Below are positions 13,259 through 39,801 of a stretch of DNA of 39,850 nucleotides, piece after piece. Under the pieces are notes generated by a model. The model saw only the letters and a list, made by a program, of their open reading frames with translations. It had not been told where the DNA came from and made no database searches. Where the stretch lies: contig MNXL01000093.1 in assembly GCA_001871755.1 (NCBI GenBank), positions 1 through 39,850 on the forward strand, given 5' to 3'. A program made the position numbers and the translations under genes. The stretch is from Anaerolineae bacterium CG2_30_64_16. GTDB lineage: Bacteria > Chloroflexota > Anaerolineae > CG2-30-64-16. Numbering within the stretch: the first letter of the stretch is position 1; the number at the start of each line of letters is the position of its first letter.

Positions 13259-13268
13259 ACTGGGAGCA

Positions 13269-13390: not shown

Positions 13391-13405
13391 TCCAGGAGGT
13401 TAGAG

Positions 13406-17684: not shown

Positions 17685-17695
17685 GAGTACTCGCG

Positions 17696-17783
17696 TTGGG
17701 ACGTTGGTAGTTTGGTAGGTTGTGTAAATTGGGGTGGATGCCCCCATTCCCCAATCCCCAATATGCCAATTCCCAATTTACCA
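17696..17783. repeat. imperfect palindrome of TTGGTAG / CCCCAAT-type units
   Basis: The left arm is ttgggacgttggtagtttggtaggttgtgtaaattgggg. The right arm is ccccattccccaatccccaatatgccaattcccaatttaccag. Confidence 0.7.
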
Positions 17784-18566: not shown

Positions 18567-18588
18567 ATCCCCAATCCCCAATCCCCAT

Positions 18589-18592: not shown

Positions 18593-19860
<1,268 letters not shown>

Positions 19861-19881: not shown

Positions 19882-19967
19882 GGGTTGGTAGGTTGGTAGA
19901 TTGGTAGGTTGGTAGATTGGTAAATTGGGGGGAGTCACCCAATCTACCAATTCCCGATTTCCCAACT
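19882..19967. repeat. inverted 8-nt arrays (GGTTGGTA/GATTGGTA x6 facing CCAATCTA units)
   Basis: attggg/cccaat plus attggtag-type pairing gives at least 14 bp of stem. It lies between the GH20 stop and the oxidoreductase start. Confidence 0.75.
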
Positions 19968-22015
19968 CACATATCGGGCCAGTTCTGCCACAGGGTGCGA
20001 TAGTCGTCTGGATCATAGGTAGACAGGTTGGCATCCACCGGCTGGCCGGCCAGGAGCGCCTTGCGTTGTTCCAGCAACCAGGCGGTGGCGGCCTTGTAGC
20101 GGGTGCGCAGGTTGGCAAAGTAGCCCAGCGACACGTGGATCTCGCTGCGGCGGGCGCGGGCCATCCACAGCGCCTCGAGCTCGGCGCGCAGGTCCTCCAG
20201 CTTGCTGTCCAGGCCGCGGATGGCCAGGTAATGCTCGTACAGCCGCGCCGCATTCTCCGCGACCGGCTCCGGCTGGGCGGCAAAGGCATTCAGGTCGGCG
20301 CGGACCGCCTGCGATAGCGCCGTCTTGCGGCCAGCGTAGGCCGTCAGCCGGGCCGCGGAAGCCATCTCCAGCAGCGTCAGCGCGCGCGGGTGGTCGGGGG
20401 CCAGGACATCGCAGGTTGCCGCCGCCGACTCGGCCAGGGCTTGCATCTCGGCCAGTGTCTCGGCAGGTAATGCGCCCTCGCCGGCCACGGTCGTGCCGGT
20501 GAGCGGCTCGTCGAACAGGGCCAGGACGGTGTGTGAACGGTTGCGGTTGTGGACGCCGGGCAGGTCATTGGTGCGGGCCAGTTGGTGGAGCGCTTCCATG
20601 ATGGCCTCGTGGTCCTCGCCAAAAAAGAGCGGGCCAAAGGCAGCGTCGAAATCCTCGTCGCTCGTCGTGCCGCCGGTCCAGCCCTGGGCTGCGCCAAAGA
20701 GGTAGCCGTGCCAGCTCAGGCCAAAGTGCTGGTAGTGGCCATAGTCGCCCCAGTCGGTGTTGAGCAGGCCCTCGGCGCCAGCGGCCACCCCATCGCGCAC
20801 AAAGTTGCGGATGTTGACGTTGGCCCCATAGAGCCGGGGGAAGATGCTGTTCCACGAGCCGACGCCGGGGCAGACCCAGAATTTACGCCCCGCCTCGGCG
20901 AAAATCCTGGCCGTGGGGTACTCGTCGGCGGGGGCATAGTGCCAGTCGAGCAGCGTCACGTCGTCGGGCACCTCATCGATGAGTTCTGGATAGTGGAGCA
21001 GGATGTCGCCCCAGACCTGGGTGCGGCGCCCGAGCCGGGCGGCCAGCTCGCGCACGCGCAGGATGTGGTTGAGGTAGACGCGCCCTACGCCGATTTCGTC
21101 GGCCTGTCTCTTGGTCGCGCCCTTGCCCAGGTCGTAGGTCTCGTCGCAGCCGACGTTGAACGTGGTCGAGGAAAAGGCAGGCAGCATGTCACCAAAGAGC
21201 TCGGCCAGCAGCGTGTAGGTTTCCTCGAAGGCCGAGCTGAGCGTCCAGAGCATGTCGGTCTCGGCCAGGTGCTGGTACTCGGGCAGCATCAGGAGACTGC
21301 GCAGGTGACCGAAAGAATTCAGATTCGGCATCAGCTCGATGTGACGCTCGCGGCAGAAAGCGTCGAGCTCCAGAATGTCCTCGCTGCCGAGGGAGCCGCA
21401 GCCGGCGCCGATCTTGGGATGGCGGGGAAACTGGAAGGTATGCTCGGTGTAGAGCTGCAGCACATTGACCTTGGAGTGGCTCAGCTCCTCGGCCAGGGTC
21501 TTGAGCGTGGTCAGGGTCGGCACCTTGCGCCGCGAGATGTCGAGCATCAGGCCGCGATAGGCCAGGGTGGGCCAGTCGCGGATTTTCAGTGTGGGCAGGG
21601 TGGCGCCCTCCAGCCGTATCAACTGGCGCAGGGTCTGGACGGCGTAGAACAGGCCGGCCGGCGCGTCGGCGTAGAGCACGATGCGCCCCCGCTGGATGGT
21701 CAAAGTGTAGGCCTGGCCCGCCACGGCCTCCGGCGCGTCGAGGGTGACCGGTTCCAGGCCAAAGGCAGCAGCCTGTTCCTGCCCACAGACGAGCAGAACA
21801 ACGTTGTCGGCTCGCGGCGGCGCGTAGGCTTTGACGATAGCCAGGAGTAGCCCTGTCTTCTGCCACACTTCCTCTTGGAGCTGGCGGGCGGCAAAAAAGG
21901 CTCCATCCCCAGCCTGGGCCGGGATCAAGATGAGCGAGTCGGCGTCCAGGGAGTACAGCCCCTTGACGAACATCAACTCTTTCGGTTCGGGAAGCAAATG
22001 CAGCGTCATTTTCAA
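19967..22015 (-). CDS. GH20 beta-N-acetylhexosaminidase-like protein
   Basis: 682 aa. IRDWPTLAYRGLMLDISR, NVLQLYTEHTF and the catalytic-pair context FNVGCDETYDLG. No signal peptide. Confidence 0.8.
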   Translation of the reverse strand: MKMTLHLLPEPKELMFVKGLYSLDADSLILIPAQAGDGAFFAARQLQEEVWQKTGLLLAIVKAYAPPRADNVVLLVCGQEQAAAFGLEPVTLDAPEAVAGQAYTLTIQRGRIVLYADAPAGLFYAVQTLRQLIRLEGATLPTLKIRDWPTLAYRGLMLDISRRKVPTLTTLKTLAEELSHSKVNVLQLYTEHTFQFPRHPKIGAGCGSLGSEDILELDAFCRERHIELMPNLNSFGHLRSLLMLPEYQHLAETDMLWTLSSAFEETYTLLAELFGDMLPAFSSTTFNVGCDETYDLGKGATKRQADEIGVGRVYLNHILRVRELAARLGRRTQVWGDILLHYPELIDEVPDDVTLLDWHYAPADEYPTARIFAEAGRKFWVCPGVGSWNSIFPRLYGANVNIRNFVRDGVAAGAEGLLNTDWGDYGHYQHFGLSWHGYLFGAAQGWTGGTTSDEDFDAAFGPLFFGEDHEAIMEALHQLARTNDLPGVHNRNRSHTVLALFDEPLTGTTVAGEGALPAETLAEMQALAESAAATCDVLAPDHPRALTLLEMASAARLTAYAGRKTALSQAVRADLNAFAAQPEPVAENAARLYEHYLAIRGLDSKLEDLRAELEALWMARARRSEIHVSLGYFANLRTRYKAATAWLLEQRKALLAGQPVDANLSTYDPDDYRTLWQNWPDM

Positions 22016-22027: not shown

Positions 22028-23266
22028 TTAGTCGCTTGCTACAGCACAAATCAGACGATTCTTTTGCACATCAACGAGACGGAAGAACGAGACGGACAGG
22101 GCGATCGCCGCCACGTTCAACAGGCCGACGATGGCGAACGGCAGCCCAAGGGCAACGTCCATCAACGCGCCGCCGAGCATCGAGCCGCCGATCATGGCCA
22201 GGTTCCACAGCACGCTGAGTGCGCCCAGCACCCGGCCGCGCTCCTCGACGACCGCCGATTCGGAGACCAGGACGGGCAAGAGCGTGGCCAACGACCAGGC
22301 CGCGGCAATGCCCGGCACGCCAAAGGTGTAGTAGCTCCAAAGCTGCGTGGCGAACACGCCCTGCCCGGCGATGGCCACGAGCAGCAGGCCGAACATCGCC
22401 AGGGTCGGGCGGCGGCTGCCCCAGCGGTCGGAGGCCCGCCCGACGACGATCTGCGCCAGCGTGGCCACCACCTGGCTGAGGGTGACGTAGAGGGCCACGG
22501 CAGTCTTGGTCCCGGCCAGGCGGTTGATCAGCAGAGGGTTCAACACCACGATCATACCATAGTAGCAGGTGGGCAGGAAACGCAGCAGGCCCAGGAGCAC
22601 CATCGACGGGCGGCGGACGACCTGCCCATAGCCGAGCAGGGTTGCGCCGACCGAGTGGGTTTGCTCGCCGGCCCCGCGCTGGAACCGGGGCAACAGGAGC
22701 ACTGCTCCCACCACTGTCGCGCCGGAGAAGGCCAGCAGAGCCAGCCCAAAGGCAGCGAAGCCCTGATGGTCCAGTACAAAACCGGCCGCCGGGCTGCTCA
22801 ACGCTCCACCAAGCGTGTAGCCCCAGTTGTACAACGCCGAGAACAGCCCCAGGCGCCTGGGGTTGGCGGCGTCGATCAGGTAGCCCATGCCCCCCAGAGT
22901 GTGAAATCCCGGCCCCAGGCCGCCCAGGACCCAGAACGCCAGGACCAACCCTGGCACCCGGCTCAGGTAGGCCAGGTTGGCCAGCGTGATCCCCAGCAGG
23001 CCCAGGACCAGCGTGCCTTTGTGCCCCACGGTGTCGGACAGCGCCCCACCGACCACCGAGGCGATCATGCCCAGCACCAGCCCCAACGAGACAAAGGTCG
23101 AGACGAGAACTGCCGGAAAGCCCAACTGCTCCTCGACGTAGATGGGGAAAAACGAGCGCTGCGGCGAGAGGATGATGCCGCTGAGCAGCATCACCAGCAA
23201 AAAGAACACGATGGGCCAGTCGCGGAAACGGGTGGTGACAGCCCGGGCCTTGAGTTTTCCGATCAT
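22028..23266 (-). CDS. MFS transporter
   Basis: About 12 hydrophobic segments. The start MIGKLK (ATG at 23266) overlaps the upstream stop as ATGA. Confidence 0.8.
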   Translation of the reverse strand: MIGKLKARAVTTRFRDWPIVFFLLVMLLSGIILSPQRSFFPIYVEEQLGFPAVLVSTFVSLGLVLGMIASVVGGALSDTVGHKGTLVLGLLGITLANLAYLSRVPGLVLAFWVLGGLGPGFHTLGGMGYLIDAANPRRLGLFSALYNWGYTLGGALSSPAAGFVLDHQGFAAFGLALLAFSGATVVGAVLLLPRFQRGAGEQTHSVGATLLGYGQVVRRPSMVLLGLLRFLPTCYYGMIVVLNPLLINRLAGTKTAVALYVTLSQVVATLAQIVVGRASDRWGSRRPTLAMFGLLLVAIAGQGVFATQLWSYYTFGVPGIAAAWSLATLLPVLVSESAVVEERGRVLGALSVLWNLAMIGGSMLGGALMDVALGLPFAIVGLLNVAAIALSVSFFRLVDVQKNRLICAVASD

Positions 23267-24438
23267 CACGAATCGTTCTCCGCCTTGTCCCGGTAGAGCA
23301 AGTATGCCTCCCGCCGCTGGTTGAATTCGGCCAAATCTTTGCTCCAACTTTGGACGATCTGTTCGACCGGTTCTCCCGCCTCCAGGGCGTGGCGGACCCG
23401 GTCGCTGCCGATGAGCCGGTCAAAGTGGGACGCTCGCCAGGCGAACTGGTCCGGGTACAGGTCATGGAGAGTGGCGACGAGGTGCAGGCCCAGCGCCACG
23501 GGGCGCAGAGTGTCTCGATCGGTGACGTGGAGTTGAAGGCCGCCGCACATCTCCCTGGCGAATTTGTCCGAGCAGGGCGCAAAACGTGTCGCCCGCGCCC
23601 GGACGCCGGGCAGCGCCAGCGCGTTGAGCCGCTTCGCCAGGGCGCGACCGTCGATCCAGGGCGCGCCGCAGACCTCGAAGGGCAGCGCCGTGCCGCGTCC
23701 CTCCGACACGTTGGTCCCCTCCAGCCGGCACAGCCCCGGATACAACGTCGCCGTCGAGGTCGATGTACCCATCGCATGGGGCATGGCCGGCGAAGTGGGC
23801 ACCCAGAGCAGCCCCGTCTCGTCGAACCACATGCCTCGCCGCCAGCCGCACATGGCCACGACGGTCAGGTCGGCACCCAGGGCGTGCTCGCCGTTCATCC
23901 AGCGCGCCATCTCACCCAGGGTCAGCCCGTGGCGGATGGGTACGGACGCGACGCCCACGAACGACTCGAAATCGGGGAGCACCGGCGGCCCTTCCAGTGT
24001 CCGGCCGTTGATGGGATTGGGCCGGTCCAGGACGATGACGGGCTTGCCGGCCTGGGCCGCGCCCTGGAGCACGTAAAAGAGGGTACTCACAAAGGTGTAA
24101 AAGCGCACGCCCACGTCTTGCATATCAAAGACCAGGACATCCACTTCGGTCAGCATGTCGGGCGTCGGCTCTTGCACCGCGCCATAGAGGCTGTAGACAG
24201 GCAGCCCGGTGTGAGGGTGGACGGCGTCGCCCACCGGCGCGCCATCGGCGGCGGCGCCATCCGGGCCATGCTCCGGGCCAAAGAGCGCGGTGAGGCGCAC
24301 GCCGGCCCGGAGCAGGGCGTCCACCGCCCCGGTGAGGTCCGGCAGGACCGCCGCCGGGTGCGTGACCAAGCCGACTCGTTTGCCCTGGAGCAGGTGGAGT
24401 TGTTCGTGGATCAGCCGATCCAACCCTGTCTGAATCAT
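23266..24438 (-). CDS. namZ: DUF1343 protein (exo-beta-N-acetylmuramidase NamZ family)
   Basis: 390 aa. GKRVGLVTHPAAV, LFGPEHG, DVLVFDMQDVGVRFYTF and LDRPNPING. Confidence 0.8.
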   Translation of the reverse strand: MIQTGLDRLIHEQLHLLQGKRVGLVTHPAAVLPDLTGAVDALLRAGVRLTALFGPEHGPDGAAADGAPVGDAVHPHTGLPVYSLYGAVQEPTPDMLTEVDVLVFDMQDVGVRFYTFVSTLFYVLQGAAQAGKPVIVLDRPNPINGRTLEGPPVLPDFESFVGVASVPIRHGLTLGEMARWMNGEHALGADLTVVAMCGWRRGMWFDETGLLWVPTSPAMPHAMGTSTSTATLYPGLCRLEGTNVSEGRGTALPFEVCGAPWIDGRALAKRLNALALPGVRARATRFAPCSDKFAREMCGGLQLHVTDRDTLRPVALGLHLVATLHDLYPDQFAWRASHFDRLIGSDRVRHALEAGEPVEQIVQSWSKDLAEFNQRREAYLLYRDKAENDS

Positions 24439-24450: not shown

Positions 24451-26052
24451 CTACCACAACGCACCGGCTGTCGGAACCATCCGCTCGAACTGCACGCCGG
24501 GCAGCCGGTAGCGGTTGCCGGGCGTGGTGGCCAGGCCACCCCGGTAGAAGAGCTGCGTCGAGCCGCCGCCGTCCAGGTTGATGGCGTCCACGGCGCCGGC
24601 CTCGGCCAGCAGTTCGGCCAGCTCCAGCAGCGTCGCGCCCGCGCTGTCGCTCTCGAGGCGATGGGCGCCCCGCTCCGTGCCGGGCACGGCGACGACGAGT
24701 AGTTGCCCCTCGGCATCCACGCCCAGGCCGATGCGGCCGGCGCGAGTGCGGTCGGTGTCCATCGGGTAATCGGTGGGCACCACGCCCACGGGGGTGTTCT
24801 CACCCTGTTCCAGCGGCGCGGTTCGGCCTTGCTCACCACGGGTCGGCCAGAACTCCTCGTCCGCCAACGAGTCTGCTGTGAGGGCGATCTGTCCACCTTT
24901 CAACAGCAACGGCCCGGCCTGGATTGCCTGCTGCACGCCCCGCAAAACCTCCTGGGCAAAGCCGTATTGCACGCGCGGCAGGCCCCCGTCTGAGATCGCA
25001 CCGTGTGGCGGCACGCCGGGGGAGAAAGAGAGCACCAGGCCATTCTGCGGGATCTCCAGCTCGCCGCCCACCTTGCGACTCACGATCCGCGTATCGACGA
25101 CGGTGTATTCGGCGCGGCCCGGTGCAGCCGGTGTCCGCCGCTGCGGCCGGCCGTAGCTCGCCAGGCCAAGGGTGCGAGTGTAAACGGCCACCCTGGCATC
25201 CCCGTCCGGGTTGAGGCGGAAAGGCAACCCCGGCAACTCACTCCCCTCCGGCGCCAGCAGCGCTCCATTCGGCAGTTGTACGGTCATGGCGAGCATCGAA
25301 ATGTGCCCGGCTTGCCAGCAACCGTCTGGCGTTTGGTAAAAGGCCGCGCGGCGGTGCAACGGTGGTCGCAGGATCACCCCGTCGCGGACGTAGAGGTTGT
25401 AGGCTTCCCCCAACGCCGAGTGGTGGCTATCAAAATCGTCGTGCTCCAGCAAGAAAAAGGCAGCGTTGAAAGCGATACGCGGGCGCTCGCGCCACACGAA
25501 CTCGCGCACAAAACCGAGGCGTCCCACCGGCAGCAGGTCCCGCTGCACGTCGAACCCTTCGAAATCGGTTGGTGTCGAAAGGCGGCGACCCAAGGCGCCG
25601 CCCAGGTAGAGCCGGTCCTCGTGGGCCAACAGAGCCAGCACCGCGCGGGCGCGATCGCGCCAGACCGGCTCGTCGTCCGGGACGGCGGCCTGCCAGTCGG
25701 CGCCATCGAAGTGCAGCCAGCCGCGGGCCAGGAGCATACGCAGGGTGTAGGTGAGCAGCGAATTGGCGCTGTAGAGCCGCTCGCCGCGCCCAGTGTGCGG
25801 ATCCACGCCGGGAAAGACCTGCTCGACGCCGCGGTCCTGCTCCAACCGGGCAAAGGCGACGCTGCGCGGATCGTTCACGCCCCGCGTCTGGGCCTTGACG
25901 GCGCGCAGGTGGGCCACTTCGGCCAGCTTGACAGCCCGGTCCTGCTGGTCGAATTCGGCAAAAGCGAACCCCGCCGGCGGGAAGCGCAGAAACGCCACGT
26001 CGGAGAAAGTGTCGTTATCCCAAAAGCGGCGGGCGTGGGTTAGATGTATCAA
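24451..26052 (-). CDS. phosphodiester glycosidase (NAGPA/DUF2233) family protein with a large N-terminal region
   Basis: The C-terminal AGPLLLKGG ... RIGLGVDAEGQLLVVAV ... GATLLELAELLAEAGAVDAINLDGGGSTQL is the NAGPA signature. It has an apparent TTG start and no signal peptide. Confidence 0.7.
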   Translation of the reverse strand: MIHLTHARRFWDNDTFSDVAFLRFPPAGFAFAEFDQQDRAVKLAEVAHLRAVKAQTRGVNDPRSVAFARLEQDRGVEQVFPGVDPHTGRGERLYSANSLLTYTLRMLLARGWLHFDGADWQAAVPDDEPVWRDRARAVLALLAHEDRLYLGGALGRRLSTPTDFEGFDVQRDLLPVGRLGFVREFVWRERPRIAFNAAFFLLEHDDFDSHHSALGEAYNLYVRDGVILRPPLHRRAAFYQTPDGCWQAGHISMLAMTVQLPNGALLAPEGSELPGLPFRLNPDGDARVAVYTRTLGLASYGRPQRRTPAAPGRAEYTVVDTRIVSRKVGGELEIPQNGLVLSFSPGVPPHGAISDGGLPRVQYGFAQEVLRGVQQAIQAGPLLLKGGQIALTADSLADEEFWPTRGEQGRTAPLEQGENTPVGVVPTDYPMDTDRTRAGRIGLGVDAEGQLLVVAVPGTERGAHRLESDSAGATLLELAELLAEAGAVDAINLDGGGSTQLFYRGGLATTPGNRYRLPGVQFERMVPTAGALW

Positions 26053-26079
26053 TACCGGCCACCCTCGCGATTGAACATC

Positions 26080-26124
26080 CTAATCCCCAATTCCCAATCC
26101 CCAATCCCCAACCTGCCAACTCAC
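26080..26124. repeat. CCCCAAT/TCCCAAT heptamer array
   Basis: taatcccc aattccc aatcccc aatcccc aacctgcc. It overlaps the stop of the fusion gene. Confidence 0.7.
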
Positions 26125-28304
26125 CCCAACGCCACAAAACCCTTCAACCACCGGATCAACTCGCGCGCTTTCTCCTCCGAGTCGGCCTCGGCAAAGATGC
26201 GCAGCACCGGCTCGGTGCCCGAGAAGCGTATCAGCAGCCAGTTGTCGTTCTCCAGGAAGAACTTGGTGCCATCCATGTGGGACACGCCCCGCAACGGATA
26301 CGGCCCGATATGGGTGAGCCCGGTCTCGGCCAGGCGACGCGGGACGACGACCCGCATCTCGGAGGTGGCTGGCAGGTTCTCCTCCACGCTGTACAGGCGG
26401 CCGGTGATGCGGTAGATCTCCTCGCACAGCTCTGAAATTGTCTTGCCCGTGCGAGCCAGCATCTCGACGACCAGCACCGCGGCAAAGATGCCGTCCTTGC
26501 CCAGGATGTGGCCGCGGATGGTCAGCCCGCCGCTGCTCTCGCCGCCCAACAGGGCATTGCGCTCCTTCATGGCCGCGACGACGTGCTTGAAACCGACTGG
26601 CACTTCGTAACATTCTTCGCCCAGATGCGCGGCCAGCCGGTCCAGCAGGTGCGTGGTGGCCAGGTTGCGCACCACACCACCTCGCTCGCCGCGCACCTTG
26701 TGCAGGTAGTAGTAGAGCAACAGCAGAACGTCGTTGATGGGCACATATCCACCCCGCTCGTCTACAATCGCGATACGGTCGGCGTCGCCGTCGGTGGCCA
26801 GGCCGAGATGGTAGCCGTCCTCCTGAACGTGGGTCATCAACAGCCGCAAGGCCTCCAGGTTGGGCGCCGGCGAGCGGCCGCCGAACAGCGGGTTGCGGCG
26901 CTCGTGGATGAAGGTCACCCGGCAGCGCGCCTCGGTGAGGATGATGCCCAGGGTGAGCTGCCCCGTGCCGTACATCGGGTCGACGATGACCTTGAGGCCG
27001 GCGTCGCGGATGGCGTCCAGGTCCACCAGCGACTCGACGGCGTCCACGTACTCGTTGACGAAATCGGCGCGGCGGACGATGTCCGCTTCCAGGCCCACAT
27101 CGAGCGGGATCTTGACCACGTCGCGCGTCATCAGGGTGTTGGTCTCGGCTTCGATGCGCTCCGTCTCCTCGGTGAGCAGCAACGAACCGTCGCCGTGAAA
27201 GACCTTCAGGCCGTTCCACTCGGGTGGATTATGGCTGGCGGTGAAGGCCAGACCATAGGCCACGCCCTGGGCCGCTGCCGCGTAGGTGATGAGCGGCGTC
27301 GGCGCGTCCTCAGTCAGCAGGATGACGGGGATGTTGTTCCCGGCAAAGACCTCCGCTGCCGCCTCGGCCGCCCGGTCGGAGAGGAAGCGGCGGTCAAAGC
27401 CGACGAGCACGCCCCGTTTTTCCTCGCCGCGGCGGATCACGTCGTTGGCCAGCGCCTGACACAGCCGCCGCACGTTGTGCAGGGTGAACCCCTCGCCGAT
27501 GACGGCCCGCCAGCCACCGGTGCCAAAGGTAACCAGGTTCTCCTCCTCGTGGCGGCGGGGGCGATAGAGCCGCTTCTGCAGGATGAACTCGGCCCGTTCC
27601 AGATCCTCCCGGGTGTTGATGCCCAGCACCTCGTCCTGGTCGTAGATCTGATGGCTCTCCACCCGCAGCCCGGAGCGAATGAGGCGGTGGGCGCAGTCGG
27701 TGAGGCGGTATTCGCCGTCCAGGGGCGAAGGCGCCAGGGTCCTTAAAGCAGGCCAGATCTTTTCAGCGCAGACGACGTAGGCCCCCACGTTCAGCTCGCG
27801 GATCTGGCGCACTTCGGCCGAAGCCTCTTCCTCTTCGATAATGTCCATGATGCGCCCGCTCGCGTCGCGGATGATGCGGCCGTAGGGCAGGGGCCGATCC
27901 ACCACGGCACTGAGCAGGGTCAGGTGTGCCTGCCGCAGCCGGTGGCGATTGAGCAGCCCCAAGATGGACGCCGGCCGGAAGAGGGGGGTGTCGCCGTAGA
28001 GGATGAGCAGATCGCCCCGGAAATCTGCCAGCAAAGGATCGAGTTGCAAGACGGCGTGCCCGGTGCCCAGCGGCTCAGCCTGGATCACGTACCGAAAACC
28101 CGGCCCCAGGTGCGCCCGCACCCTGTCTTGCTCGTAGCCGACGACGATGTAGAGATCGTCCACCGCCACACGCCGCAGCGCGCACTCGACCACATGGTCC
28201 AGAACCGCGCGGTCGCCGAGCGGCTGAAGCAGCAGTGGTTCTCTATCGGCCGTGATCGTCTGTTGGCCCGCCGCCAGGATGACGGCTTTCAGTTCCTTAC
28301 TCAT
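26121..28304 (-). CDS. fusion protein: GlmU-N-like nucleotidyltransferase domain + alpha-D-phosphohexomutase
   Basis: The N-terminal ~245 aa carry AVILAAG, LGTGHAV, LILYGDTPL and EYRLTD. The C-terminal ~480 aa carry FTASHNPPEWNGLK, LATDGDADR, GGESSGG and RFSGTEPVLR. The ATG at 28304 overlaps the upstream stop (ATGAGTAA). Confidence 0.85.
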   Translation of the reverse strand: MSKELKAVILAAGQQTITADREPLLLQPLGDRAVLDHVVECALRRVAVDDLYIVVGYEQDRVRAHLGPGFRYVIQAEPLGTGHAVLQLDPLLADFRGDLLILYGDTPLFRPASILGLLNRHRLRQAHLTLLSAVVDRPLPYGRIIRDASGRIMDIIEEEEASAEVRQIRELNVGAYVVCAEKIWPALRTLAPSPLDGEYRLTDCAHRLIRSGLRVESHQIYDQDEVLGINTREDLERAEFILQKRLYRPRRHEEENLVTFGTGGWRAVIGEGFTLHNVRRLCQALANDVIRRGEEKRGVLVGFDRRFLSDRAAEAAAEVFAGNNIPVILLTEDAPTPLITYAAAAQGVAYGLAFTASHNPPEWNGLKVFHGDGSLLLTEETERIEAETNTLMTRDVVKIPLDVGLEADIVRRADFVNEYVDAVESLVDLDAIRDAGLKVIVDPMYGTGQLTLGIILTEARCRVTFIHERRNPLFGGRSPAPNLEALRLLMTHVQEDGYHLGLATDGDADRIAIVDERGGYVPINDVLLLLYYYLHKVRGERGGVVRNLATTHLLDRLAAHLGEECYEVPVGFKHVVAAMKERNALLGGESSGGLTIRGHILGKDGIFAAVLVVEMLARTGKTISELCEEIYRITGRLYSVEENLPATSEMRVVVPRRLAETGLTHIGPYPLRGVSHMDGTKFFLENDNWLLIRFSGTEPVLRIFAEADSEEKARELIRWLKGFVALG

Positions 28305-29805
28305 TTCCAATAATCCGTATGGGCGTCCAGGTTGTATCCAGATCTAAAGGATAGATCGGGCGATTCACCCGGCGAAACGCCATGTCGGCCACCCGGCAGT
28401 TGGTCGCGCCGGGGCTGAAGGCCAGGATCGAACGCTGGCTGATGGCCTGGAACGGTGCGGTCAGGTAGCCCCGCTTGAGCACAACAATGCGGTAGTCGAG
28501 CGGCTCCAGACCGAGGCAACGGAGCTGGGCCGGGTCCTCGAAGCTGAGGCGGGTGGACGATAAAATGATGTCCACCCCATCCATGTTCAACACGGCAATG
28601 GGTCCGGTCTGGGCCCTTCCACGCGGCTGACGGACACCGCCTTTGTAATCTTGACCGTCAGTCAACAGCCGCACGCGCCCCGTGACTTCCAGGGACGTGC
28701 CATGAAACGTATCCAGCTTGCCACCGATAGACACGGTCACGTCCTGACCCACGCCGGCGGCAGCACAGGCTTCCACCGCCTCCACATCCCAGATGCTGGC
28801 AAAAACGACGCTCTGGGCGTCCTGGGCGAACAGTTCTGCCAGGAGTTCGGGTACGTCCGTCGTGCCACCGGCGCCGGGGTTGTCGCCGGAATCGGACAGA
28901 AAGACGGTGGATTCCCCGGCGGTCCGGGCCTTTTCGACGGCCTCGGCCATCGGATAGGCCTCGGCGCTGACGCCGAACTCGGCCCGCCGCTGCCAGAAGG
29001 TCGCCGCCAGGCGATCCGCCTCCGCCTGGGCCAGCGCCGCGTCACCGGTGGTGACGACCACCGCCGAGACACCGATGTCGGGCACGTCGGCCCAGCAGTG
29101 GCCGTTGGCCAGCGACGCCGACAGCACCTCGGGGCGCTGCTCCAGCTCGTCCACCAGGGCCATCATCGACGCCATCGGATCGAGCGCTGTCTGGGCCATC
29201 TCGCCGGGCAAGAGGAACGGCGCCTTGGCAAAGCCCATCGCCGGCCGCTTGCCCCCCTCCAGGATCCACAAGAGCATCTCGGCGGCGCGCCCGCCGGTCT
29301 CGTAGGCGTCCACGTGGGGTGCGGTGTGGTAGGCGACCATGGCGTCCACGTTGCCCACCATCTCGGCGACGATGTTGGCGTGCATGTCCAGGGCCAGGGT
29401 GATGGGCACGCCCGGACCGAGCCTGGCCCGCAGGTCGCGAACCAGATCGTTGTCAGCATAATCCAGCCCCTCGGCCCTTCGACCCGGCTCAGGGCTGGCC
29501 CGCATCGCGCCGTGGAGATAGAGGCAGGCGCCGTCCACGTCGTGGGCCTGGTCGAGAATGGCCTGCTTGAACGTTTCGTAGGCGCGGCGCTCCACCACAC
29601 CGCCGGGCATGGCCCCCGCGGCCACGGTCGGCACCAGCCCGGCGCCGCGCGCGCGCAGCGTGTCGAGGATGCCGTCCAGCGAGCTGCGACAGGGCAGGCC
29701 CTGAAGCAGTTCGTCGCCGTAGCGCACGTAAAAGTCGTCCATCGTCGTCAGGAACGGCGTAAAAGTATTGGATTCGTGGCCTACAGCACCAACCAGGATT
29801 CTCAC
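28297..29805 (-). CDS. M81-family metallopeptidase (MlrC-like)
   Basis: 502 aa. MRILVGAVGHESNTF and LHGAM...LDMHAN, with the MlrC_C-like C-terminus. GTG start. Confidence 0.75.
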   Translation of the reverse strand: MRILVGAVGHESNTFTPFLTTMDDFYVRYGDELLQGLPCRSSLDGILDTLRARGAGLVPTVAAGAMPGGVVERRAYETFKQAILDQAHDVDGACLYLHGAMRASPEPGRRAEGLDYADNDLVRDLRARLGPGVPITLALDMHANIVAEMVGNVDAMVAYHTAPHVDAYETGGRAAEMLLWILEGGKRPAMGFAKAPFLLPGEMAQTALDPMASMMALVDELEQRPEVLSASLANGHCWADVPDIGVSAVVVTTGDAALAQAEADRLAATFWQRRAEFGVSAEAYPMAEAVEKARTAGESTVFLSDSGDNPGAGGTTDVPELLAELFAQDAQSVVFASIWDVEAVEACAAAGVGQDVTVSIGGKLDTFHGTSLEVTGRVRLLTDGQDYKGGVRQPRGRAQTGPIAVLNMDGVDIILSSTRLSFEDPAQLRCLGLEPLDYRIVVLKRGYLTAPFQAISQRSILAFSPGATNCRVADMAFRRVNRPIYPLDLDTTWTPIRIIGNE

Positions 29806-29812: not shown

Positions 29813-30610
29813 CTAAGATAAGGCTCTGAAGCCCGTCCTCGGACGTCCCGGGGACGGGACTTGTGAGCGAATGGCCCCCAGCATCGCCCGGACGCGACTG
29901 GGATCGGTCACTTCGAGGGCGAATTCCGGCGGCCTGAGCTCGCCACCCATGAAGCAGTTCGGGTTGCGGTACTCCATGGGGCTGGCGATGGTGGCCGGCG
30001 CGGCAGCGTGCACCTCCCTGGCCCCGCTCAACTCGACGATCTTGCGGATGTTGCGCTCGTGGATCCCGCCGCCGGGCATGACGATGATCCGGTCGCCGGC
30101 CCTTTGTACCAGGTCGGCGATCAGGGCCAGCCCCTCGAAGGCCGTGATCTCCTGGCCGGAGGTGAGCACCCGGTCCACGCCCAGCTCAATCAGGTCCTCC
30201 AACGCCTGGTACGGATCGCGCGCCATGTCAAAGGCGCGGTGAAATGTGACGTTCATTGGCCGGGCCAGCTCGACCAGCTCGCCGGTGCGCGCCCTGTCCA
30301 CCGCGCCGTCGGGATTCAAGATGCCGATGACCACCCCGTCGGCGCCCAGCTTTTTGGCCATTGCGATGTCGAGCTTCATGATCTCGAACTCGCCGTCAGT
30401 GTAGCAGAAATCGCCGCCCCGGGGCCGGATCATGACCTGTAAGCCGATGTCGATGCGCTGGCGGGCAAGCTGGATCGACCCCGCGCTGGGCGTCGTGCCG
30501 CCCTCCAGCAGGTTGGCGCACAGCTCGACGCGGTCCGCGCCGCCTGCCTGGGCGGCGATGGCCGCCTCGGCAGAGCCGATGCAGACCTCAAAAATGATGC
30601 GGCCTGTCAT
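29813..30610 (-). CDS. cutC: CutC-family protein
   Basis: EVCIGSAEAAIAAQAGGADRVELC, MIRPRGGDFCY and HRAFDM. Confidence 0.8.
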   Translation of the reverse strand: MTGRIIFEVCIGSAEAAIAAQAGGADRVELCANLLEGGTTPSAGSIQLARQRIDIGLQVMIRPRGGDFCYTDGEFEIMKLDIAMAKKLGADGVVIGILNPDGAVDRARTGELVELARPMNVTFHRAFDMARDPYQALEDLIELGVDRVLTSGQEITAFEGLALIADLVQRAGDRIIVMPGGGIHERNIRKIVELSGAREVHAAAPATIASPMEYRNPNCFMGGELRPPEFALEVTDPSRVRAMLGAIRSQVPSPGRPRTGFRALS

Positions 30611-30776: not shown

Positions 30777-32711
30777 CTACTGGTTGCACGGATAGAGCGT
30801 GCCGTCCAGGATCATCATGACGGCAAAGGAATCGGCGTAGGGGCTGTTCTTGTAGATCGGGTCGTCGTCCGGCAGCCAGCCACAGGTATGCAAGCCGTCC
30901 ATGGCCGGGTTGTTGCCATAGCGCTCCCAGAGTGGGATCTGGGGCAGCAGCTCATTGTAGGCCTTGGCGGTCTCGGCCACCATCGCCTTCTGGGCCGCGG
31001 TATCCAGGCCCTGGGGCATGTTGTCGATGTTGGTTTCAAAGTCAAAGTCGCCGCAGCAGTCGGTGGTCTGTTGCAGGGTGAAGCTCATGCCTGGACCTTG
31101 CGTGCCCAGGGCAGGATCGGCCGCCAGGGCGGCACCGGTGACCGCCTCACCGTTGTGGGTGTACAGATCCTGGACGAAGGAGAAGTGCGGGTGCGGGTTG
31201 CCAGAACCCCAGGCGCGAATGGCGAGCTGGAAGTTGCCCTGGTTCACGTTGATGGGGTGCTGGCGGAACTCGACGCCGCGGAAGCTGGTGGGGATGCCAA
31301 AGGCGGTGAGCTGCTCGGCCACGTTCTCGGCGGAGGCCGACCAATCGGCGTACTCGGCCGGTGCGGTCAGCTCGTACTCCATGCGGTCGCCCTTGTCGGT
31401 GACCCACACACCGTCGGCGCCCTTGGTGAAGCCCAGGCCGGTGAGGATCTGCTCGGCCTTGGCCGTGTCGTACGCGTACTTGTCGAGGGCATCGACGTCG
31501 TCCACCCAGAGCGGAACGATGTTGTCGCTAAAGCCGGTCATGTACACCACGGCTTTACCCGACTCGCCCAGGGAGACGGTGCCGTTCTCGTGGCGGTCGA
31601 TGGCGTAGGCCAGGGCCTGGCGAACCTCTTTGACGTTGAAGGGGTAGATGGTCTGGTTGAAGTAGAGTGCCGGGCCGGAGTAGATGGGCGGCCGCAGGAT
31701 GCGGACTCCCTCGCCGACGAACGCCTTTTCCGTCGCTGGCGGGAAGCCGTGGGTGGCATAATCCACCTGCATGGCCAGGACCAGCGGGGTGACGGTGGGC
31801 GTCTCGCCGTTGTAGATGTAGACCTCGTCGAACTTGACCGTGTCGGCCAGCCAGGACGACTCGTTCTTGACCAGGGTCAGGCGGGCCTCGTTGAGGCTCT
31901 TGGGGTCAACGTTATACGGGCCGGTAGCGTTGATGGCTTCGGGCCGATACTCGTTGAATTGCTGCAACAAGGCATTCCACTCATCCGAGGCCATATCCTT
32001 GCCCTCGTCCAGCAGGGCCTGCACCTTATCCGACCACTCGCCGTAGGTGGCCCGGTCCACGATGTACTCGTTGCGGATGACGTAGCGCTCGACGACGATC
32101 GAGGGCTCGCTCATGGAAAAGACGACGGTGTGGTCATCCACGGCCTCGACCTTGTCCAGGAAGCGCCAGACGGTGCCCTTGGCCAGGCGGCGGCAGTTGA
32201 AGGTGACGACCACGTCTTCGGCTGTAAAGTCGTCGCCGTTGCTCCACTTGACGCCCTCGCGCAGCTTGACGGTGAGGGTGGCCGCCTCCTGGTCAGTCTT
32301 CCACTCGGTGGCCAGAAGGGGCATCCAGGAGCCATCGGCCCAGTAGTACATGGCCAACGGCGGCTGGAACAGCGAGCGGTAGATGCCGATGGCGATAGCG
32401 TTGGTGGCGAATTCGTTGAAGTGGCCCACCGGCGGGACCTGGTAGGGATAGGCGCCGGCGAACACGCCGCCAGGCTTCGGGGTGGCCGTGATCACCTTCT
32501 CCACCTCGACCGGCTTCTCCACGACCTGGGTCACGACCTTCTCCACAACCTGGGGCGTGCCCTCGACGACGACGGTCTCTTTGACCGTCTTTTCCACAAC
32601 TTGGGTGACGACTTTTTCGACCACCTGCGGCTCCGAGATGGGTGCGCAAGCGGTGAGCAACATCGCCACCACGATCAACAAGCTGGCCATAGAAAACAGT
32701 TTCTTACTCAC
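30777..32711 (-). CDS. ABC transporter substrate-binding lipoprotein (family 5, peptide/oligosaccharide type)
   Basis: GTG start 7 nt after AAGGAGG. Lipobox LLTAC. There are repeated VVEKVVTQVVEK linker units before the SBP_bac_5-like body. Confidence 0.85.
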   Translation of the reverse strand: MSKKLFSMASLLIVVAMLLTACAPISEPQVVEKVVTQVVEKTVKETVVVEGTPQVVEKVVTQVVEKPVEVEKVITATPKPGGVFAGAYPYQVPPVGHFNEFATNAIAIGIYRSLFQPPLAMYYWADGSWMPLLATEWKTDQEAATLTVKLREGVKWSNGDDFTAEDVVVTFNCRRLAKGTVWRFLDKVEAVDDHTVVFSMSEPSIVVERYVIRNEYIVDRATYGEWSDKVQALLDEGKDMASDEWNALLQQFNEYRPEAINATGPYNVDPKSLNEARLTLVKNESSWLADTVKFDEVYIYNGETPTVTPLVLAMQVDYATHGFPPATEKAFVGEGVRILRPPIYSGPALYFNQTIYPFNVKEVRQALAYAIDRHENGTVSLGESGKAVVYMTGFSDNIVPLWVDDVDALDKYAYDTAKAEQILTGLGFTKGADGVWVTDKGDRMEYELTAPAEYADWSASAENVAEQLTAFGIPTSFRGVEFRQHPINVNQGNFQLAIRAWGSGNPHPHFSFVQDLYTHNGEAVTGAALAADPALGTQGPGMSFTLQQTTDCCGDFDFETNIDNMPQGLDTAAQKAMVAETAKAYNELLPQIPLWERYGNNPAMDGLHTCGWLPDDDPIYKNSPYADSFAVMMILDGTLYPCNQ

Positions 32712-33215: not shown

Positions 33216-34196
33216 CTATCCTGTAACCCTGTGACAGGCTACCTGATGCCCGTTTTCGCCCACTGACTTCAGTTTCGGCGCTACCCGGTCGCATAGTCCT
33301 TCCTCAAAAAGCGGGCAACGCGGGTGAAACCGGCAGCCTGGGGGCAGGTTACGCAAGCTGGGAATGTCCTGACTACGGAGCGTTATCGGTTTCTTGCGCC
33401 GGGTCAAATTCGGATCGGCTTCAGGCACAGCAGCCAGGAGAGCCTTGGTATAGGGGTGTTGCGCGTTGTTGATCAACTCTGGCGTGGATGTAAGCTCAAC
33501 GACGCTACCCACATACATCACGGCGATGCGCCCTTCCCAGGCGAAGAATTTAGCCAGCGCCAGGTCGTGGGTGATGAACAGAAAAGTGACGCCCAACTGC
33601 ATCCTCAAGCGGGAGAGCATTTTGAGTAGACTGACTCGGATAGAGACATCCACCATCGAGACGGCCTCGTCGGCGACAATGAAGCTGGGATTGACAGTGA
33701 GAGCACGGGCCACAGACACACGCTGGCGCTGGCCACCGCTCAACTGGTGGGGATATTTGGTCAGGAAATCCTCAACCGGGGTCAAGTCCACGATCTGGAG
33801 CAATTCGACGACCCGCTCCCGCGCCTGCCGGCGGCCATTCACAAGATTATGATGCAATAAGGGGGCACTCAGGATCTGGTGGACGGTGTGAGACGGGTTC
33901 AGCGAGGCGTAAGGATCCTGATGGATGATCTGCACCCCCAGCCGGTACTTTCTGAAGCTTTCTTTGTCTTGCGTCCAAACATCCTGACCCTGGTACCGGA
34001 TCCGCCCACTGGAGGGTTTGAGCAAGCCGGCCAGCAGCTTGCCCGTGGTCGTCTTGCCACAGCCGCTTTCACCCACCAGACAGAGGACCTCTCCCTCACT
34101 GATACCCAGGGAGACGTCGTCCACCGCCGTCACCCTTTCGCGGCGGCGGCCAAACTGCCGGGTCAGGTTGTGCGCTTCGATGAGGTACTCGGTCAT
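33216..34196 (-). CDS. ABC transporter ATP-binding protein (OppF/DppF-like)
   Basis: Walker A GESGCGKTT, signature LSGGQRQRV, Walker B FIVADE. It has the C-terminal oligopeptide-type extension. Its start overlaps the upstream stop as ATGA. Confidence 0.88.
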   Translation of the reverse strand: MTEYLIEAHNLTRQFGRRRERVTAVDDVSLGISEGEVLCLVGESGCGKTTTGKLLAGLLKPSSGRIRYQGQDVWTQDKESFRKYRLGVQIIHQDPYASLNPSHTVHQILSAPLLHHNLVNGRRQARERVVELLQIVDLTPVEDFLTKYPHQLSGGQRQRVSVARALTVNPSFIVADEAVSMVDVSIRVSLLKMLSRLRMQLGVTFLFITHDLALAKFFAWEGRIAVMYVGSVVELTSTPELINNAQHPYTKALLAAVPEADPNLTRRKKPITLRSQDIPSLRNLPPGCRFHPRCPLFEEGLCDRVAPKLKSVGENGHQVACHRVTG

Positions 34197-35257: not shown

Positions 35258-35263
35258 GTCGGT

Positions 35264-36169: not shown

Positions 36170-36170
36170 G

Positions 36171-37274: not shown

Positions 37275-38081
37275 CTACCCATGCTTTTCGACGATCCTGA
37301 CCATCTGCTCGAATTTCTCTTCCATATCCTGGACCATCTTGAACTGGGTTCGGCAACGGTCCAGGTTGTGGCCCTCTCGATGAACCTCCATGACGTTGTT
37401 GAACTTGGTGTCGTTGTGCGTGATGCGGCGGGGAAGCGCTCCCTTGTCCAACAGATCGACGAGGATTGGCATCTCCTCAGCCCGCTGCTCTACGAACTCG
37501 ATCTCGGCCCTGGCCGTCTGAGCGCGGTTCCTGGCATCCCTTTCCACAGACCGGACAAAGGCGTCGAACCGTTTCGGCGTGTGGTGAAAGTCCGGGATAG
37601 TTTCGTACAGTTGCTCCGCCGGGAAATCGCTGACCAACTGCTGGAACTTACCGAACGCCTTTCCGGCATTGTAAAAGTGATCCAGGTGCGCCACGACCTG
37701 GTAGGTTTGGGCGCCTTCGATAAAGACATACGCCCGCCAGTAGTTGCCCTCGGTCGTTTTGTAAAAAGTCCTGCCATCCACCGTGGGAATGAGATTGAGC
37801 GTCTCCCGCTCCGGATCGCCGCCGGCAGCAATGATTTTCTCCCGGAGGTGGACGGTCACTTTTGCGATGTTGTGCATCAACTCTTCGGGATGCCTGAACA
37901 CCTCGTGGTTGATCCGCTGCAAGATGTAGCGATGGACCACGCCATCGGCTTTGCGAAAGCGGGCGGCGTAGGTGCCATTGATGTGCCCGATACCGCAGCG
38001 CTGGGCGTCCAGAAACTCGCCCTCGAACGCGAATTGGGCGACGATGGATCGAAAGTCGGGCCTCATCGAGCATTCCCTCAC
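37275..38081 (-). pseudogene. nahK: N-acetylhexosamine 1-kinase-like (NahK/AmgK-type APH-fold kinase) with an apparent ~100-aa in-frame internal deletion
   Basis: GHINGTY, YILQRINHEVFRHPEELMHNI and ITHNDTKFNNVM are followed directly by the family C-terminal end, HNLDRCRTQFKMVQDMEE. The IDLDT metal-binding segment expected in between is missing. Confidence 0.6.
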
Positions 38082-38582: not shown

Positions 38583-39801
38583 TTACGCCGCGGCCTCTGG
38601 CGTGGCAAACAGTCCCAGTTCGCGGTTCAGGACCAGGGCCGATGCACCCAGGATCACAATCTCCGAGTCCATGCTCGACAGCCCGATCTCGGTTTCGTTG
38701 GCCAGAACAGCCAGCGAGCGTTTGACCATCTCCTGCCGGATCGCATCCAACAGTATCTGTCCAAGGCGAGCCACGCTGCCGGCGATCACAATGCGCCGGA
38801 CACTGAGCAGACCGACAACGTTGGCAGCCGCGATCCCGAGGTACTGTCCGGCTCGCCGGACCATCTGCTGCACCTGCTCATCACCGGCCTCCATCGCCCG
38901 GCAGATAGTCTCGATCGTGATCTCTTCGGGGCTGGCGGCAAAATGGTTGAGGCGAGAGTCCGGATCGTTGGTAGCGAGAGATTGGGCCTGGCTGATAATC
39001 GCGCGCGCTGGCCACTGTTTCAAGGCAGCCGAAATTGCCGCATCGACACTGCCTGCCATTCGCGACCACGGCGACGTGCCCGATCTCCCCCGCGCCAAAA
39101 GTCTCGCCGTGGAAGATCTGTCCATTCAGCACGATGCCAGCGCCGATGCCTTGCCCCACTTTGACCACGACCAGGTTCTCCACACCCGGCCCGTCGCCAA
39201 AGGTGTACTCGCCCAGGGCCGCCACCTGCGAATCGTTGGCTACGTACACCGGCAGGCCGTACCGCTCTTCCAACAGGGCCCGCAACGGCAGGTCGTGCCA
39301 GTTCAGGTTGACCGAGCGGCGCACGATGCCGTTGGTGGCATCCATCAAGCCCGGCGAGCCAATGCCGATGCCCAGCAGAGGGTTGTCGGTTGCAGCTATC
39401 AGATCTTGGACCATCTCGTACACGAGTGCCAGAGCGGCCTCACCGTCTCGATTGTGCAAAGGTACATTGATCTGGTGCCGGACCTGGCCGTGCAGGTTCA
39501 CCACTGCGCCACGGAACTCGGCGCTGGCCAGGTCAATACCGATGAGGTGGCGGGAGTCGGCGACGATACTGAGAAGGATGGGGGGTTTGCCACCTGCCGA
39601 CGGACCATAGCCGATTTCTTCTACCAGTCCCTGGTCCATCAGGTCTGTGACCACGTCGGAAACGGTCGTTCGGGTAAGTCGAGTCTCGCGAGCCACGTCA
39701 GCCCGGCTGATCTCTCCGCGCTCGTAGATGATCTTGAGCACCAGGCGACTGTTGTGGACCTTCGTCTGTTTGCGGGTTGCCTTTTGTGCCACTCGTCGCA
39801 T
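38583..39801 (-). pseudogene. ROK-family transcriptional regulator (NagC/XylR-like) with an apparent frameshift
   Basis: It has an N-terminal wHTH (LVLKIIYERGEISRADVARETRLTRTTVSDVV) and the ROK motif CRCGNFGCLETVAS. The frame changes inside the CG-repeat run 39000-39008 and continues as RAIISQAQ... in ORF 38583..39125. Confidence 0.7.

Follow-up and report, generated by a model that had tools for sequence, protein, structure and literature searches.

A Widely Conserved Bacterial Fusion of a Phosphohexomutase with a GlmU-Like Domain That Lacks the Canonical NTP-Binding Loop

A stretch of 39,850 nucleotides (nt) from Anaerolineae bacterium CG2_30_64_16 (Chloroflexota; positions 1 to 39,850 of contig MNXL01000093.1, referred to here as the window) carries on its minus strand an uninterrupted open reading frame (ORF) at positions 26121..28304, with an ATG start and its stop codon at 26121-26123. 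Its product is a single polypeptide of 727 amino acids (aa) in which a nucleotidyltransferase (NTase)-fold domain resembling the N-terminal half of GlmU precedes a complete phosphohexomutase, an architecture first proposed from the bare sequence (the original prediction) and confirmed here by Pfam, NCBIfam and PDB matches. A TTG further upstream, at 28310, would lengthen the protein by two residues to 729 aa. The ATG is supported as the start codon because it shares 8 nt (ATGAGTAA) with the stop of the upstream gene, which encodes an MlrC/M81-like peptidase by Pfam (28297..29805, minus strand), and because the same arrangement is present in the closest relative, L021 (handles beginning with L or P designate relatives of the gene and their loci). 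The overlap suggests that the two genes are translationally coupled.

The fusion is a genuine and widely conserved bacterial gene. It is present in nine species-representative genomes from Anaerolineae, Chloroflexia, Ardenticatenia and other groups, on a contig as large as 5.2 Mb, and in more than 120 homologue clusters drawn from independent JGI, ENA, NCBI and Logan assemblies, those with a name being mostly metagenome-assembled genomes (MAGs) of Chloroflexota, with 67-91% identity across loci and clusters. The best 120 clusters are all co-linear fusions of 724-800 aa with 73-91% identity. The concern that the two halves might have been joined by a frameshift or by assembly is thus answered by the uninterrupted ORF and the co-linear clusters. 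Nor do relatives encode the two domains as separate genes: stand-alone mutases of the subfamily occur (P0124 and many clostridial ones), and no separate gene for the N-domain was seen to adjoin them at the relatives' loci.

Pfam places NTP_transferase/NTP_transf_3 at aa 6-158 and PGM_PMM I-IV at aa 259-716. Among NCBIfam models, the N-terminal half of GlmU aligned to aa 7-248 (best E=3e-56), and Arch_GlmM, the best match of the mutase half, to aa 260-720 (E=5e-91); every equivalog cut-off was nevertheless missed, with scores of 190.8 vs 450 for GlmU, 305.9 vs 439 for Arch_GlmM (TIGR03990) and 173.3 vs 447.55 for glmM (TIGR01455). Searches against PDB sequences matched aa 7-247 to GlmU from S. 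pneumoniae (E ~1e-39) and aa 258-719 to phospho-sugar mutases from P. horikoshii, T. kodakarensis and Thermus (E ~1e-61 to 1e-65). By the NCBIfam and PDB alignments, the GlmU-type domain occupies aa 1-250 (27555..28304, minus strand) and includes the equivalent of the GlmU helical arm; a conserved linker, LYRPRRHEEENLV (aa 246-258; 27531..27569, minus strand; mean identity 0.73 in the homologue alignment), leads into the alpha-D-phosphohexomutase domain with PGM_PMM I-IV at aa 259-727 (26124..27530, minus strand), as assigned by Pfam and Foldseek. The mutase stands where GlmU has its acetyltransferase domain, the helical arm being followed directly by PGM_PMM I-IV, and no left-handed beta-helix acetyltransferase domain was detected in the fusion protein with Pfam or NCBIfam.

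All four mutase motifs noted in the original prediction were located on the minus strand: the catalytic phosphoserine loop TASHNP (aa 355-360, with Ser357; 27225..27242), the metal-binding loop DGDADR (aa 505-510; 26775..26792), the sugar-binding loop GGESSGG (aa 587-593; 26526..26546) and the phosphate-binding loop RFSGTEP (aa 693-699; 26208..26228). Residues S357, D505/D507/D509/R510, E589/S591 and R693/S695/T697 are invariant in an alignment of 40 sequences, and judged by sequence every catalytic element of the mutase half is intact. An AF2 model built from the same number of aligned sequences (mean pLDDT 81.9, pTM 0.67) is confident in the mutase, moderate in the N-domain and below pLDDT 50 at residues 226-254, which include the linker. 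A Foldseek search of the PDB matched the model to the archaeal and Thermus phosphoglucomutase/phosphomannomutase (PGM/PMM) structures 9du5, 1wqa and 1tuo with target-normalised TM scores of 0.89-0.90; no solved structure containing both domains was found in the PDB by Foldseek (only mutase-length matches) or by phmmer (single-domain matches).

The N-domain departs from GlmU in the loop that binds the nucleoside triphosphate (NTP). Sugar-nucleotide pyrophosphorylases of this type share the strictly conserved fingerprint L-x2-G-x-G-T-x-M-x4-P-K (PMC10087520), and in the ternary complex of MtGlmU, no residues other than Arg19 and Lys26 salt-bridge the phosphates of UDP-GlcNAc (uridine diphosphate N-acetylglucosamine) and pyrophosphate (PPi) (PMC8386105). 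The corresponding loop of the window protein, LAAGQQTITADREPLLLQ (aa 10-27; 28224..28277, minus strand), does not fit the fingerprint and reads LAAGQQTIT....PL instead. In a gapless alignment with GlmU, Ile17 occupies the position of Arg18 and Leu24 that of Lys25, which bears out the earlier observation that the Arg and Lys contacting the NTP are missing; the second glycine of the fingerprint (Gly16) is absent too. With E. coli GlmU (MG1655) as a position ruler over 121 family sequences, Arg was found in 0/121 at position 18 (residues I, A, L or V) and Lys in 0/121 at position 25 (residues M, I, L, T or P). The family consensus of the loop is LAAGKEAITADAEPMVLQxLGDR, and insertions of 6-14 residues in some members make this indel-bearing segment the least conserved stretch of the family.

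The remainder of the nucleotide-sugar pocket is retained. Equivalents of E. coli Q76, G81, T82, Y103, D105, P107, G140, R141, E154, N169, G171, T199, D200, G225 and N227 are kept in 99-100% of the 121 sequences, and both metal ligands and the GDTP loop in 100%. The uracil and ribose contacts of GlmU (PMC9105790), the GlcNAc contacts and the metal ligands are thereby preserved in at least 99%, excepting the equivalent of Glu195 (111/121). Further contacts in the MtGlmU complex are made by Ala14, Gln83, Gly88, Thr89, Gly151, Glu166 and Asn181, plus Gly17 and Thr18 of the loop (PMC8386105); the family keeps them all save the two in the glycine-rich loop. Among 37 close homologues, the N-domain outside the loop has a mean pairwise identity of 0.77 and the mutase one of 0.795, against 0.565 within the loop. 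Against the four closest relatives (L021, L018, L001 and L002), the Nei-Gojobori ratio of nonsynonymous to synonymous substitution (dN/dS) lies at 0.14-0.20 in the N-domain and 0.11-0.22 in the mutase; saturation of dS in more distant relatives confines the estimate to these comparisons. The N-domain shows no sign of decay, and purifying selection acts on it as strongly as on the mutase.

Three arginines have been gained. Arg110 lies in YGDTPLFR (aa 103-110; 27975..27998, minus strand) directly past the GDxP metal loop, together with the retained Tyr103 and the metal ligand Asp105; Arg169 lies in IRELNVG (aa 168-174; 27783..27803, minus strand) three residues ahead of the GlcNAc-binding Asn172, which corresponds to E. 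coli Asn169; and Arg200, in GEYRLTD (aa 197-203; 27696..27716, minus strand), replaces GlmU Tyr197 inside the E195-T199 segment. Their E. coli counterparts are S110, Q166 and Y197, each arginine is present in 120/121 members, and none is found in E. coli GlmU or in the consensus of the clostridial fusions described below; among reference GlmUs, one (5vmk) also has Arg at the position of R110. A literature search on the role of GlmU Tyr197 returned nothing relevant. Since the sugar-binding lobe of GlmU spans Glu112-Val215 (PMC10087520), positive charge appears from these alignments to have shifted off the N-terminal NTP/PPi loop and onto pocket-adjacent sites, two of them in that lobe.

Few fusions below 60% identity were found in a scan over 1.84 billion representative proteins. 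P0121 (57% identity) has a degenerate loop carrying an insertion and P0130 (39%) an odd loop, while the loop of P0126 (41%), GKGERM...PKV, is canonical. With P0126 as query, 24 more fusions of its type (25 in total) were recovered, the named ones from Ruminococcaceae, Oscillospiraceae and Clostridiales, with the motif Arg in 24/25 and the Lys in 25/25, as well as very many stand-alone mutases of ~466 aa that are ~70% identical to its mutase half. In a neighbor-joining (NJ) tree of N-domains, a split supported by 188/200 bootstraps, which is open to long-branch effects, groups the clostridial N-domains with true GlmUs and places the Chloroflexota-type domains, P0121 and P0130 together. Because these three degenerate groups cluster, the degenerate condition looks old and stably kept. 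A single origin of the clostridial and the Chloroflexota-type fusions was considered but is not supported by this tree, the clade joining them having appeared in 3/200 NJ bootstraps only. P0149 and P0230 combine a mutase with other NTase types, and the NTase-mutase architecture has therefore arisen repeatedly.

The clostridial fusions share with the window protein the domain order, a similar junction and a mutase of the same subfamily (44% identity), and differ in keeping the canonical GKGxR[LM]...PKVMR loop. One of them, at L010 10001-12157 (also L011 and L012; loop GKGxR...PK), adjoins a gene for a NagC-like ROK protein and a divergent NahK-like kinase accompanied by a short NTase. We regard the intact-loop proteins as candidates for a single-polypeptide route from GlcNAc-6-phosphate (GlcNAc-6-P) through GlcNAc-1-P to UDP-GlcNAc. 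A degenerate-loop fusion with 73% identity also occurs in a MAG of Terriglobales (Acidobacteriota; L028/L029, 9001-11238), between an MFS transporter and a gene of glycoside hydrolase family 94 (GH94) and flanked by TonB-type outer-membrane proteins, which suggests that the fusion and the GH94 gene were acquired together by lateral transfer.

In the window, the fusion lies within a long minus-strand cluster whose transcription order runs from a NagC-like ROK regulator at its head (38881..39801) to a BadF-type GlcNAc kinase (16252-17181). Between them, and likewise on the minus strand, follow a NahK-like N-acetylhexosamine (HexNAc) 1-kinase (37275..38081; matching NahK structures of B. longum at E=1e-46), a pair of ABC ATPases and a pair of permeases of an Opp-type importer (33216-37265), a family-5 solute-binding protein (30777-32711), CutC (29813-30610), the MlrC-like peptidase, the fusion itself, an NAGPA-like phosphodiester glycosidase assigned by Pfam (24451..26052), NamZ of the exo-beta-N-acetylmuramidase family (23266-24438), an MFS transporter (22028-23347), a GH20 hexosaminidase (19967-22015), a GFO/IDH/MocA oxidoreductase (18598-19860) and an AnmK remnant (17223-17693); a Uma2-family gene (17838-18557) is on the plus strand. 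Relative to its homologues in L007 and L010, the NahK-like kinase has an in-frame internal deletion of ~98 aa that starts directly behind the H-N-D-x-K-F-N-N catalytic loop, and for this reason it is probably inactive in this organism. AnmK survives as a 3' remnant that aligns at 80% identity with residues 270-426 of its L019 homologue (455 aa); the Uma2 gene sits just upstream of the missing 5' part, and in L019 both genes are intact and side by side.

Intergenic tandem arrays of 7-8-nt units occur at 26077-26111, 17742-17778, 18567-18587, 8488-8610, 13264-13390, 2351-2414, 16238-16266, 17695-17722 and 19885-19928, with units CCCCAAT/ATTGGGG, AGGGATT/AATACCC, GCAAGGG, ATCGGAA and TTGGTAGA/ATCTACCA; the heptamer CCCCAAT presumably resembles the STRR1 repeats of cyanobacteria. 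One array, G-rich on the mRNA-sense strand, lies between the fusion stop and the NAGPA start, where L018 (12347-12928) and L021 (4116-4688) have a 190-aa HI_0787_N-domain gene; that gene is absent from the window, which has a 68-nt spacer with the G-rich heptamers instead. L018 also lacks NamZ at the place where the window has it. Positions 90-15356, on the left of the window, hold unrelated housekeeping genes, including a histidine kinase, a queuosine-mannosyltransferase-like glycosyltransferase and an ilv/leu set of acetolactate synthase large and small subunits, ketol-acid reductoisomerase, two LeuA/CimA-type synthases and an aconitase-family LeuC. An Rfam scan of the window returned nothing beyond one tRNA (1749-1819, minus strand).

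Relatives at 78-88% identity keep the salvage cluster, have AnmK intact and also encode a MurQ-like etherase, proteins of the beta-lactamase fold and an HddA-like GHMP kinase. The last lies directly upstream of the fusion in L025 (7973-8998), L026 (7973-8989) and L027 (1063-2079), and its closest PDB relatives are heptose-7-phosphate C1-kinases (HddA/WcbL) and fucokinase, which phosphorylate the anomeric carbon; by analogy, its product might be HexNAc-1-P or even HexNAc-1,6-bisphosphate. NahK homologues accompany the fusion in the window, in L018 and L007 and in the clostridial L010, and the ROK genes of these clusters are NagC-like. Chitobiose phosphorylase orthologues of GH94 adjoin the fusion in L001, L002, L004 and L014/15, and in L017 the neighbour of such an orthologue is a clostridial stand-alone mutase from this subfamily. 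The L001 and L017 enzymes score ~1200-1255 bits to 1v7v vs ~520 to cellobiose phosphorylases, and the L001 enzyme shares 68-78% identity with those of L002, L004, L014/15 and L017; the ~798-aa gene after the Terriglobales fusion (L028/29) is assigned to GH94 at the family level, without subtype. Elsewhere, glmS lies upstream of the fusion in L004, the P0121 locus has a LysM protein and an enzyme of the MR_MLE family, which includes L-Ala-D/L-Glu epimerases, and L013 has no sugar-related context.

The most constant neighbour, found even beside the 39%-identical relative, is the NAGPA-like gene (L005 12268-13890, L016 1006-2397, L018 12956-14563, L025 11360-12955 and L026 11226-12998), which in L026 overlaps the fusion by 4 nt. 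Its product is a protein of ~530 aa with no obvious signal peptide in its N-terminus as read by eye, and may act on HexNAc-alpha-1-phosphodiesters, possibly wall-polymer linkage units or UDP-HexNAc.

What these neighbourhoods share is enzymes that make HexNAc-alpha-1-phosphate. A precedent is found in Vibrio cholerae, in which the GlcNAc-1-P mutase VC0611 is encoded beside VC0612, a (GlcNAc)2 phosphorylase (PMC5209532), in a chitobiose pathway that converts GlcNAc-1-P to GlcNAc-6-P (PMC4814513). By its gene context and the reaction deduced from it, the fusion is comparable, its mutase being genomically coupled in the family to a chitobiose phosphorylase and a family-5 solute-binding protein with an Opp-type importer. 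The two settings differ in that the Vibrio enzyme is, we take it, a stand-alone mutase, and in that the window cluster is peptidoglycan-oriented (NamZ, MlrC and the AnmK remnant) and lacks a phosphorylase. Because its neighbours are HexNAc-1-P producers, as at the Vibrio locus, the mutase half most likely interconverts GlcNAc-1-P and GlcNAc-6-P, with promiscuity possible. The gene context further suggests that the relevant input is the 1-phosphate, that is, a flux from 1-P to 6-P or a role at a branch point.

The original prediction had instead emphasized channelling of GlcNAc-6-P or MurNAc-6-P (MurNAc, N-acetylmuramic acid) through the 1-phosphate to the UDP-sugar. For the window protein this route is disfavored by the loss of the salt-bridge residues in 121/121 members and by neighbours that make HexNAc-1-P, so that the flux direction suggested by context is opposite to the one stressed there; channelling fits better the clostridial canonical-loop fusions. 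Nothing was found that specifically favours a shortcut from MurNAc-6-P; MurQ and AnmK are encoded in relatives' clusters, and MurNAc-6-P therefore already has a standard sink. The further suggestion, that the transferase domain might be inactive or regulatory, stands.

We propose, with what we consider an even chance of being correct, that the protein is a GlcNAc-1-P/GlcNAc-6-P mutase carrying a catalytically disabled, ligand-binding pseudo-GlmU module that tunes or feeds the mutase. Acting within NagC-controlled operons for amino-sugar and peptidoglycan salvage, the mutase would receive HexNAc-alpha-1-phosphate from chitobiose phosphorylase or anomeric kinases. The N-domain would no longer make UDP-HexNAc at a useful rate and would bind a uridine-sugar (UDP-GlcNAc, or a related anionic ligand such as UDP-MurNAc with or without its peptide) or else a HexNAc phosphate; the anionic ligand is considered because positive charge has been added. 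With its ligand bound, the N-domain would regulate the mutase or pass substrate to it at the point where GlcNAc-1-P can either enter catabolism as GlcNAc-6-P or be re-used directly, the genuine GlmU of the cell turning it into UDP-GlcNAc.

The ligand-binding role of the N-domain is proposed by analogy with GalF, GMPPA and the large subunit of ADP-glucose (ADP-Glc) pyrophosphorylase (AGPase-L). In GalF the GXG(T/S)R motif is naturally disrupted and Vmax is ~1000-fold below even that of monomeric GalU; restoring the T and R raised its activity 10-fold, and putting the Arg back likewise resurrected the large subunit of the plant ADP-Glc pyrophosphorylase, which is modulatory (PMC4643126). Conversely, the T20M/R21H change in GalU costs ~500-fold in activity (PMC4643126), and R18A in E. 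coli GlmU ~6000-fold, as cited in the same paper. GMPPA is a non-catalytic paralogue that binds the product GDP-mannose and regulates GMPPB, retaining product binding for feedback (PMC11228364). Like these three proteins, the fusion N-domain has lost the motif Arg and kept its fold under purifying selection. They are, however, separate subunits regulating an active NTase paralogue, whereas the fusion places the domain in cis to a mutase of a different family, and the sugar subdomain, intact in the fusion, has decayed in GalF as well.

Compared with GlmU itself, to which it is homologous over aa 7-248 (33-37% identity to PDB GlmUs, E ~1e-39), the N-domain has the same uracil, ribose and GlcNAc contacts, metal ligands and helical arm behind the domain, but is without Arg18, Lys25, Gly16 and the beta-helix, is followed by a mutase and has three extra conserved arginines. 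Judged by NCBIfam models it is GlmU-like rather than MurU-like, GlmU models scoring best and RmlA-type models reaching E ~1e-10. The Pseudomonas-type AmgK/MurU pair and eukaryotic AGM1 with UAP1 resemble the system in that an anomeric kinase or a HexNAc-phosphate mutase precedes an NTase-fold step, but MurU and UAP1 have intact NTP-binding motifs, whereas the catalytic residues of the fusion N-domain are missing. A literature search found no characterised NTase-mutase fusion and no bacterial GlcNAc-phosphate mutase fusion.

Several observations weigh against a disabled, ligand-binding module. Where an anomeric kinase is present it lies directly upstream of the NTase-like domain, which is the logic of AmgK/MurU and favours an active N-domain; the 100% conservation of the metal ligands and the GDTP loop exceeds the strict needs of ligand binding; and the gained arginines, all three, might take part in catalysis and so make up for the loss. 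On the side of the substrate, the window contains no GH94 gene or chitobiose phosphorylase and its NahK-like gene appears damaged, L003 has a GH130 mannoside phosphorylase in place of the chitobiose phosphorylase, and the choice of sugar (GlcNAc, GalNAc, MurNAc, Glc or Man) derives from the neighbours only. Finally, no paper describing this fusion family was found in the literature searched.

The first alternative, which we regard as unlikely, is that the N-domain is a rewired but active NTase in which R110, R169 and R200 replace the lost charge. The protein would then be truly bifunctional, converting HexNAc-6-P to HexNAc-1-P and HexNAc-1-P plus NTP to NDP-HexNAc (NDP, nucleoside diphosphate), and together with an upstream kinase would constitute a MurU/GlmU-like salvage route. 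The three arginines are clade-specific, near-invariant and next in sequence to pocket elements, and the other catalytic-pocket residues and both metal ligands are kept; anomeric kinases lie directly upstream at several loci, as in AmgK-MurU, and the clostridial fusions with a canonical loop indicate that the architecture is compatible with activity. Precedents also exist for relocated catalytic charge: eukaryotic UGPases function without the motif Arg (PMC4643126), and in other pyrophosphorylases a lysine from elsewhere replaces a metal (PMC8386105), so that an active rewired site is possible. Against this, the protein has neither of the residues that salt-bridge the phosphates nor the glycine-rich turn, the segment needed to close over the NTP is its least conserved and an indel-prone part, and loss of the single Arg costs 500- to 6000-fold in GalU and GlmU. 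By sequence position, moreover, the gained arginines would lie in or next to the sugar-binding lobe, away from the PPi side.

In a second view of the arginines, in our estimate a doubtful one, the N-domain is rewired: R110, R169 and R200 would create an additional site for anions, sugar-side in a uridine/HexNAc/metal pocket that is otherwise fully kept, and the domain would catalyze a reaction new to the GlmU fold. Such a reaction might transfer the uridylyl group of UDP-HexNAc or UDP-MurNAc, or hydrolyse these compounds, without PPi; or it might handle HexNAc-1,6-bisphosphate from the HddA-like kinase that some relatives encode directly upstream.

It is improbable that the protein is an ordinary housekeeping mutase, either PGM/PMM or the cell's GlmM, with an N-domain that is merely structural, serving for example oligomerisation or stability and having no ligand role. 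Consistent with this alternative are the Arch_GlmM model as best NCBIfam match of the mutase half, the very high conservation (67-91% identity) across Chloroflexota classes, the glmS gene at L004 and the lack of sugar context at L013, and the stand-alone mutases of the subfamily that exist without an N-domain. However, the equivalog cut-offs are missed by wide scores (305.9 vs 439 for Arch_GlmM, 173 vs 447 for GlmM), HexNAc-1-P producers and NagC regulators predominate among the neighbours, and a purely structural domain would not hold its ligand contacts and metal ligands at 99-100% amid ~75% overall identity.

Very improbable, in our view, is a PPi-independent reaction of the N-domain on a uridine-sugar that supplies HexNAc-1-P to the fused mutase, either by hydrolysis of UDP-HexNAc or UDP-MurNAc-peptide to uridine monophosphate (UMP) and HexNAc-1-P or by exchange of UMP with a second sugar-1-P. 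The product pocket and metal site are retained while only the holders of PPi and of the beta- and gamma-phosphates are lost, the fused mutase would use up the HexNAc-1-P product, and the constant NAGPA-like neighbour belongs to a family acting on HexNAc-alpha-1-phosphodiesters. This chemistry is nevertheless speculative: no precedent for it in the GlmU fold was found, there is no obvious cytoplasmic source of UDP-sugar for catabolism, and the lost Lys25 also touches the alpha-phosphate region (PMC9105790). The last alternative, an assembly, frameshift or gene-calling artefact joining two neighbouring genes, has next to no probability, since nothing was found in its favour and it is refuted by the uninterrupted ORF, the nine genome loci, the more than 120 co-linear clusters, the 5.2-Mb contig and the conserved linker.

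GlcNAc-1-P is a branch point from which recycled amino sugars can be uridylylated directly to UDP-GlcNAc or moved to GlcNAc-6-P for catabolism, and both their partition and the routes that keep the N-acetyl group are an active question; a 2026 mycobacterial preprint, for example, infers an undescribed route with a GlcNAc intermediate (PMC13041923). Taken singly, the parts found here are of known kinds: phosphohexomutases, domains of the GlmU fold and regulation by a pseudo-NTase. Their combination, in which a mutase takes the place of the acetyltransferase, the degenerate loop is fixed, the pocket has gained three arginines and the gene lies in salvage operons, is not described in the literature searched. 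The fusion, abundant in Chloroflexota and present also in one Acidobacteriota MAG, is therefore a solid, testable lead for amino-sugar recycling and pseudoenzyme biology rather than a categorical surprise. If the N-domain is a sensor, a pseudo-NTase domain in cis with a mutase would provide built-in sensing at the GlcNAc-1-P branch point; if it is rewired, the family would hold new chemistry in a well-studied fold; and if it acts on a uridine-sugar without PPi or on a bisphosphate, it would add a new branch, located in the cytoplasm, to the recycling of peptidoglycan and amino sugars by Chloroflexota.

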